Virus record (IMG/VR): IMGVR_UViG_2740892231_000004
DNA length: 14,199 nt
From: a virus
Lineage: Duplodnaviria > Heunggongvirae > Uroviricota > Caudoviricetes
Direction: 5' to 3' (one strand)
Under the pieces are notes generated by a model. It saw nothing but the letters and a program-made list of their open reading frames with translations, searched no databases and was not told the origin of the DNA. The position numbers and the translations under genes are program-made. This document shows, piece by piece, positions 13,923 to 14,131 of this stretch (positions are counted from its first letter, which is position 1; the number at the start of each line of letters is the position of its first letter).

Positions 13923-13948
13923 TTATTGCTGATAAGTTAATAAATACG

Positions 13949-13973
13949 GGCCGTCTGCCCTTACAGGCGGCCT
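13949..13973 (+). promoter_or_regulatory. Stable 9-bp stem-loop 26 nt after the porin stop (no U tract)
   Basis: GGCCGTCTG pairs with CAGGCGGCC (one G-U wobble), loop CCCTTA. Confidence 0.35.
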
Positions 13974-13977
13974 GTAT

Positions 13978-14000
13978 CAATGAAAACACAGTTTTCATTG
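13978..14000 (+). promoter_or_regulatory. Perfect 10-bp inverted repeat CAATGAAAAC-aca-GTTTTCATTG
   Basis: Exact palindrome read from the sequence. Could be an operator-type protein site or an RNA hairpin. Confidence 0.3.
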
Positions 14001-14095
14001 GTCACTGCGATCAGCAATTGCCATCTGGCATGTGCTGATTTAACTTTCTGTTATTACCTTTATTGGTTTTATTTTAAATTGGACTTTTATTGTTC

Positions 14096-14119
14096 GGGGC
14101 GCGTCTGCGCCCCTTTTTT
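14096..14119 (+). terminator. Rho-independent terminator (GGGGCGC-gtct-GCGCCCC + TTTTTT) closing the porin moron
   Basis: 7-bp GC stem, 4-nt loop, T6 tract; 12 nt upstream of the L start codon. Confidence 0.7.
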
Positions 14120-14131
14120 ATGGGCGGATAT

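Follow-up and report, generated by a model that had tools for sequence, protein, structure and literature searches.

Why does a porin gene carried by a lambdoid prophage end in a long and highly structured spacer, and could this spacer act on the porins of the host? The question arises in a viral DNA stretch of 14,199 nt (the window), which contains the head-tail module of a lambdoid prophage. An earlier note on this DNA had proposed that the region behind the porin gene may encode a small RNA similar to IpeX, the 167 nt RNA from the 3'UTR of the porin gene nmpC in the cryptic prophage DLP12 and of lc in phage PA-2. On balance, we favour the reading that the spacer is the 3'UTR of the prophage porin mRNA and an anti-host-porin riboregulator of the IpeX kind. 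Given the complementarity of the spacer to the ribosome-binding regions of ompC and ompF, the phage probably replaces the host porins with its own, an effect reported for IpeX, and according to the duplex models a MicC/MicF-like seed is the probable mode of action.

In the window, tape-measure gene H (8993-12235) and tail gene M (12228-12569, stop codon 12567-12569) are followed on the + strand by 1,562 bp (12570-14131) that extend exactly from the M stop codon to the L start codon (14132); therefore, the porin gene was regarded as a moron. The M stop and L start codons overlap in phage BP-4795 (AACTGATGCAGG), whereas they are separated by the moron in the window, and similarity of the window to moron-less phages sets in at query base 1563, with the L start codon. 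Besides the exact M/L insertion, the further hallmarks of a phage moron were found, namely a terminator and, upstream of the gene, a conserved ompC-promoter-like element as candidate promoter. Of 5,426 complete E. coli genomes, 109 contain the whole moron and 111 (about 2%) the 3' spacer. The moron was located between M and L at every locus inspected, the tail module being degraded in one, and among the matches listed Shiga-toxin-producing strains from humans and cattle predominated. The literature searched contained no account of a porin moron between M and L or of its 3'UTR.

The insertion also concerns the downstream tail genes. L is translationally coupled to M by an overlapping TGATG in moron-less phages, and in the window it has its own ribosome-binding stretch (ATGGGCGGATAT) directly 3' of the moron terminator; this ribosome-binding region together with the ATG (14120-14134, + strand) is supplied by the moron. 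For L, K, I and J to be expressed, late transcription must read through the moron terminator. At two loci (L005:4192-4270 and L170:2049-2075) the sequence past the terminator differs (TTACTCAGGAAATGCATGCTTCATATTCATGAAGAAAG) and L is frameshifted or degraded, the 3'UTR element being intact.

The porin gene (12768-13922, + strand, stop codon 13920-13922) encodes a protein of 384 aa of the OmpC/OmpF/PhoE family. It scores 507.7 bits against the NCBIfam OmpC subfamily (cut-off 484) and is annotated 'porin OmpC' in RefSeq; it is only 69% identical to NmpC. The promoter region harbors an element on the + strand (12648-12674, CTTGCATTTACATTTTATTACATAAT) that combines an exact match to ompC with conservation among the morons. 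Its first 16 nt (CTTGCATTTACATTTT) match exactly the K-12 ompC promoter at -179, a stretch which we take to be OmpR site C1, and TTTACATTTT is invariant across five moron types. This suggests that the moron might be OmpR-regulated like ompC. No promoter-like site was found on the + strand inside the porin gene or the spacer, so a small RNA would have to arise by processing, the origin given for IpeX in reviews (PMC12197685). A weak promoter candidate, recognized by eye only, falls within the segment of hairpin 3 that spacer types B-D lack (see below).

The spacer between the porin stop codon and L (13923-14131) is 209 nt long, as the earlier note had it, and the elements described there were all recovered, two of its hairpins having been missed (13908-13937 and 14009-14040), so that the total is four and not two. 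All features lie on the + strand. Hairpin H0 (10 bp, 13908-13917/13928-13937) spans the porin stop codon with its 5' arm in coding sequence; three of its pairs vary solely from U-A to U·G, and one column is mismatched in 2 of 13 sequences. H1 (14 bp with two G·U pairs, 13944-13957/13964-13977) contains the previously noticed 9-bp stem-loop (13949-13973) as the core of a 14-bp hairpin (13944-13977) and shows compensatory double changes at three pairs. Its hexaloop (13958-13963) is CCCUUA, or CCCUCA in types B-D, and is anti-Shine-Dalgarno-like; it complements the UGAGGG/GAGGG Shine-Dalgarno sequences of ompF and ompC. H2 (10 bp with a 3-nt loop, 13978-13987/13991-14000) is the perfect 10-bp inverted repeat at 13978-14000, exactly as claimed, and has four compensatory double-change pairs.

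H2 is followed by a single-stranded linker (GUCACUGC, 14001-14008) that is 100% identical in all 13 variants; the mean unpaired probability of 14002-14010 is 0.70. The linker complements the motif GCAGUGGC, which occurs in the leaders of both ompC and ompF and also within the signal-peptide codons of the phage porin gene, and with positions +12 to +21 of the phage porin's own mRNA it reaches an accessibility-corrected energy of -7.8 kcal/mol. A two-site model, in which linker and block (see below) bind one ompC leader, was discarded, as the order of the sites precludes a single antiparallel duplex. H3 (14009-14015/14034-14040) has seven conserved bp, one of them a compensatory pair, and carries an apical extension in the window; its apex is 13 nt shorter in types B-D. 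In two E. coli strains from mice the H3 apex is exactly inverted (L002:4024-4199, AATTGCCATGCATAT, versus L181:2024-2199, ATATGCATGGCAATT; window 14016-14033) and the stem is kept.

Behind H3 lies a single-stranded block (UAACUUUCUGUUAUUACCUUUAUUGGUUU, 14041-14069), antisense to host porin leaders and unpaired in the centroid structure. Then comes an A/U-rich spacer (14070-14095), which is the least conserved part (62%) and a candidate Hfq-binding stretch. The intrinsic terminator (14096-14119) was found where it had been placed, with an all-G/C stem of seven pairs and a 4-nt loop (14096-14113) followed by T6 in the DNA. It is one-directional and its stem is invariant in the 13 variants. The U6 tail and the U-rich stretch upstream of the terminator might hint at Hfq binding. 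Hairpins and linker may stabilise the RNA, set a processing site or bind a factor.

The fold is more stable than expected by chance. The minimum free energy of 13923-14119 (197 nt) is -78.2 kcal/mol, compared with -43.5 +/- 3.8 kcal/mol for 200 dinucleotide shuffles (z = -9.2), and 14041-14080 is unpaired in the centroid structure. For comparative analysis, 13 distinct versions of the spacer, representing about five types with identities down to 74%, were drawn from metagenomes, viral contigs and the genomes of E. coli. A pattern scan of metagenomes contributed 12 real copies, mostly of known types, of which two added type D variants; two further hits (L166 and L168) were chance matches and were rejected. 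RNAalifold recovered five helices from the 13 versions. Standard pairs make up 98.9% of the 618 stem cells, in contrast to 34-43% after the 3' partners have been displaced by 1-3 columns. Changes on both sides were observed at eight pairs (three in H1, four in H2, one in H3) and at 0-3 in the slid controls, whereby the cells counted are not independent events. The hairpins are thus conserved among related elements, with compensatory changes. Moreover, 45 stem cells are G·U and none is A·C, and the opposite strand would pair in just 91.6% of the cells. By this asymmetry, the structure is selected in the porin-sense (+ strand) RNA.

Identity between types is 100% in the linker, 93% in the terminator, 90% in the H1 loop, 88% in the H1 stem, 87% in the block and 86% in H3, compared with 44-65% at four-fold degenerate sites of the porin gene. 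The spacer is thus constrained far more strongly than silent sites of the gene, in a comparison that might be skewed if spacer and gene have recombined. The closest chromosomal relatives of the porin, which are from other enterobacteria and share about 68% protein identity, end in just one terminator hairpin, located 20-40 nt past the stop codon. The sole other long porin 3'UTR with multiple hairpins in the sample belongs to the nmpC/lc prophage family and is ipeX.

The complementarity of the spacer to the host porin mRNAs was examined by duplex prediction. The block (14041-14069) pairs with positions -36 to -4 of the ompC leader by 27 pairs, of which three are G·U, interrupted by a single mismatch and a single bulge, and this target stretch spans the MicC site and the Shine-Dalgarno sequence. 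It also complements the ompF leader from -22 to -3, at the MicF site. The K-12 ompC leader is a fair proxy for the host sequence, since 5,359 of 5,371 E. coli genomes carry it with an identity of at least 99%. For the block of the window (type A) a duplex energy of -26.7 kcal/mol was obtained with ompC, a value reached by none of 10,596 background windows and by none of 154 sequences resembling translation-initiation regions (TIR-like), a small set; both sets are from other enterobacteria. The ipeX block behaves alike, with -26.4 kcal/mol and a 24-bp duplex on ompC (0 of 10,596 as good), as does the control pair MicC-ompC (-26.5 kcal/mol, 0 of 10,596). The blocks of types B-D reach -20.6 to -21.6 kcal/mol on ompC (0-14 of 10,596). 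On ompF the energies are -18.7 kcal/mol for type A (194 of 10,596 as good), -18.6 kcal/mol for ipeX (149) and -18.9 to -21.4 kcal/mol for types B-D (8-15), and the control MicF-ompF gives -27.4 kcal/mol (2). By raw duplex energy type A and ipeX are thus only in the top 1.4-1.8% of the background on ompF. The register on ompC differs, as type A and ipeX pair at -36 to -4 and types B-D at -14 to +12, a shift between types that could be drift rather than selection.

Several controls bear on how specific this complementarity is. None of 1,000 shuffles of the block reached the ompC value. Out of 1,333 natural AU-rich 30-mers, 2-4 were as good on ompC and 0-1 on ompC and ompF together, A/U-rich sequences with CCUU having some affinity for any ribosome-binding site. 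The leaders of the phage porins themselves are bound near the background mean, except for type B on the nmpC leader (z -1.9). Whole 3'UTRs hybridised with whole leaders in RNAduplex gave meaningless full-length duplexes, and raw energies of 25-nt segments along the 3'UTR did not single out the block. As the G/C-rich hairpin arms score equally, raw energies do not discriminate; therefore, opening energies were added. After this correction the block was the best site in every 3'UTR tested (-9.3 to -12.6 kcal/mol), and among 404 background targets just 0-2 were as good; the controls gave -15.7 kcal/mol for MicC-ompC and -11.5 kcal/mol for MicF-ompF. In a longer transcript, the UACCU part of the block can pair with the coding end. 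The target prediction on the 5' regions of ompC and ompF that the earlier note had suggested hence singles out the translation-initiation regions of both, and the complementarity lies above background in five sequence types.

The alignment to DLP12 ipeX, proposed in the same note, had a divided outcome. At the level of primary sequence the similarity is not significant: BLAST of the window against ipeX returned just the last porin codons and a local patch of 23/30, and an nhmmer profile of the family matched only the terminator part (E = 0.58). Rfam 15 contains no model that matches the real ipeX locus or the window; as it has no IpeX family, Rfam scans are uninformative here. Covariance models did match the ipeX loci. 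Model R1, built from the 13 M-L sequences alone, found nine of ten ipeX loci at full length and in the right place (40.3-46.5 bits, E 1e-11 to 6e-10); L135, the remaining locus, scored 33.2 bits and contains an insertion, and the 3' end of ompC scored 10 bits. Model R2, from which the coding end and H0 were omitted, was searched against 535 kb on both strands and recovered all ten at 39.9-45.6 bits (E 1.6e-7 to 2.9e-6), the best match outside ipeX having 27.4 bits. The E-values are rough, the models were built on closely related sequences and have an effective sequence number of about 1.2, and hairpin 3 of ipeX is not well aligned to them. The element shares the architecture of ipeX and, as the models indicate, may be a distant homologue. 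L135 (3581-4310) is a viral contig of the nmpC type with about 700 nt between porin stop codon and ipeX, a natural separation of gene and 3'UTR. In the RIL-seq and CLASH material of PMC7213987 ipeX does not occur.

Next to ipeX, the R2 matches rank micF genes of more than 20 species (15-27 bits), which are divergent from chromosomal porin genes and located 300-400 nt upstream of them. Examples are L030:2095-2196(-), L062:2073-2172(-) and L182:1674-1774(+), with about 20 more. The last about 80 nt of the 3'UTR are colinear with MicF (UAAuUUUCUuUUAUUACCUUuAUU versus UAACUUUA-UUUAUUACCGUCAUU, then spacer and terminator), and the covariance model places the A/U-rich stretch 14070-14095 opposite the body of MicF. 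The Rfam models of MicF and MicC gave no match to 12400-14199 at E <= 10. As shared descent and convergence on the same target are inseparable here, we use the wording 'MicF/MicC-like module'.

Other readings of the spacer have to be weighed against a riboregulatory one. The spacer could serve in cis only, the hairpins shielding the porin mRNA from 3' exonucleases and the terminator insulating the tail operon from transcription of the moron in the lysogen. A moron needs a terminator, and the strong one-way terminator found here ends the moron behind hairpins that are stable and conserved. However, a function restricted to cis does not explain why the unpaired block and linker are 87-100% conserved at 44-65% identity of synonymous sites, nor why top-ranked complementarity to ompC and ompF occurs in five types and is absent for the own leader; moreover, chromosomal porin mRNAs at the loci examined have a single terminator hairpin. 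We consider this explanation unlikely, while granting it some weight.

Quite improbable is an IpeX-like effect that dispenses with base pairing, in which hairpins or linker would sequester a protein or other factor that host porin expression requires, the complementarity of the block being incidental. In its favour, reviews state that IpeX acts without base pairing to ompC or ompF (PMC3617542) or that its action is not reliant on complementarity alone (PMC12197685); IpeX has also been called Hfq-independent (PMC8313858). Likewise, conservation is highest in the linker (100%) and the H1 loop (90%) and not in the block, and it is the hairpin layout that the covariance models recognise in ipeX. 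The duplex energies, however, contradict the stated lack of complementarity of ipeX to ompC: the 24-bp duplex is as stable as MicC-ompC and is matched by none of 10,596 background windows, and no protein partner can be named from the sequence. It is very unlikely that block and terminator are a decaying, non-functional relic of a captured micF/micC-type gene or of an inverted porin leader that travels with the porin. The colinearity with MicF and the R2 matches to micF in more than 20 species would fit such an origin, but conservation is well above the level of synonymous sites, complementarity is kept in diverged types and the Rfam models are without a match. Hardly credible, finally, is a role at a level other than RNA. 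Inverted repeats could act as DNA, in the form of palindromes for protein binding or recombination, and mechanical ORFs exist on both strands, among them one of 59 codons at 13980-14159. Indels of 13, 3, 2 and 1 nt between variants break this frame, so that no conserved reading frame exists and the small ORF was rejected. The G·U asymmetry, which indicates selection on one RNA strand, rules out the minus-strand and DNA-palindrome readings, and the spacer sequence does not recur at other places in the genomes of E. coli.

We return, then, to the preferred reading of the spacer as a riboregulator. Transcription of the moron would start at its own, probably OmpR-dependent, promoter and stop at the terminator, and the product could be either the complete mRNA or a 3'-terminal piece released from it by processing. 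Such an RNA would present four stable hairpins, the exposed block, the A/U-rich stretch and the terminator. The block would pair with the Shine-Dalgarno/start region of the host ompC and ompF mRNAs and thereby block their translation and/or trigger their decay, while the phage porin leader, being non-complementary, would escape. As a net effect OmpC and OmpF would be swapped for the phage porin. Expression in the lysogen, processing, an involvement of Hfq and repression of the host porins are what we infer from the features described above. Of the small RNA that the earlier note had envisaged, structure, covariation and predicted targets thus speak for an IpeX-like 3'UTR RNA, and primary similarity to ipeX does not.

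A wider reading seems plausible to us but is put forward tentatively. Phage porin genes might be self-contained 'porin-swap cassettes' composed of an OmpR-type promoter, a porin and a 3'UTR mimicking the MicC and MicF seeds, and IpeX itself might base-pair at the ribosome-binding sites of ompC and ompF; such cassettes would occur in at least two phage porin families of unrelated primary sequence and at two moron sites. If true, this would contradict twenty years of reviews denying base pairing by IpeX. The analysis offers a concrete, testable pairing model for this RNA, whose mechanism remained unexplained. If the window element works as proposed, a single transcript would let a temperate phage rewire the cell surface, bringing its own porin in and silencing OmpC and OmpF, porins that serve as phage receptors and as main entry routes for antibiotics. 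The analysis further suggests that seeds for the target sites of host small RNAs can be built into the 3'UTRs of phage mRNAs. That a phage porin gene has a 3'UTR lowering host porins is already known. New are a second family of unrelated primary sequence at another moron site, a structure supported by covariation, and a MicC/MicF-like pairing model that also fits IpeX.

Among known systems IpeX is the closest. Both elements lie on the same strand between the stop codon of a lambdoid-prophage porin and an intrinsic terminator, and in both the order of parts is hairpins, an A/U-rich unpaired block and a G/C terminator. Past the nmpC stop codon, DLP12 has a hairpin, a second hairpin with the loop CCCUCA, a third hairpin, an A/U-rich stretch with CUUCUGUUAU..UACCCUUUAUU and the terminator GGGGGCGU..ACGCCCC. 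The CCCUCA hexaloop of ipeX hairpin 2 is identical to the H1 loop of types B-D, and a block with CUUCUGUUAU..UACC(C)UUUAUU, antisense to the ompC leader, is common to ipeX, where it reads AAACCUUCUGUUAUAUAUUACCCUUUAUUUUU (about nt 102-138 past the nmpC stop codon), and the window element. The two differ in length (about 197 nt in the window, about 165 nt in ipeX) and in moron site, which is between the tail genes M and L in the window and between Q and the lysis genes for the ipeX porin. The function has been shown for IpeX, whereas the role of the window element is a computational prediction.

With MicF and MicC, Hfq-dependent chromosomal antisense RNAs that act as repressors of ompF and ompC, the window block shares an unpaired seed directed against the translation-initiation regions of these genes, at comparable energies. 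MicF and MicC are, however, independent genes with their own promoters and lie divergently upstream of a porin gene, whereas the window element is a same-strand porin 3'UTR for which no promoter of its own was found. Their seed is at the 5' end; that of the window is internal, behind four hairpins and about 45 nt before the terminator, and one RNA is apparently aimed at both ompC and ompF, for which the host has the separate RNAs MicC and MicF. A further comparison is offered by small RNAs such as CpxQ and SroC, which derive from a 3'UTR and end at the terminator of the mRNA they come from. Unlike in these, the parent gene is phage-borne, the putative targets are paralogues of the parent gene, and processing is something that we infer. 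As in CpxQ and SroC, a conserved seed is located near the mRNA's own terminator and no internal promoter was detected, which would imply processing from the parent transcript.
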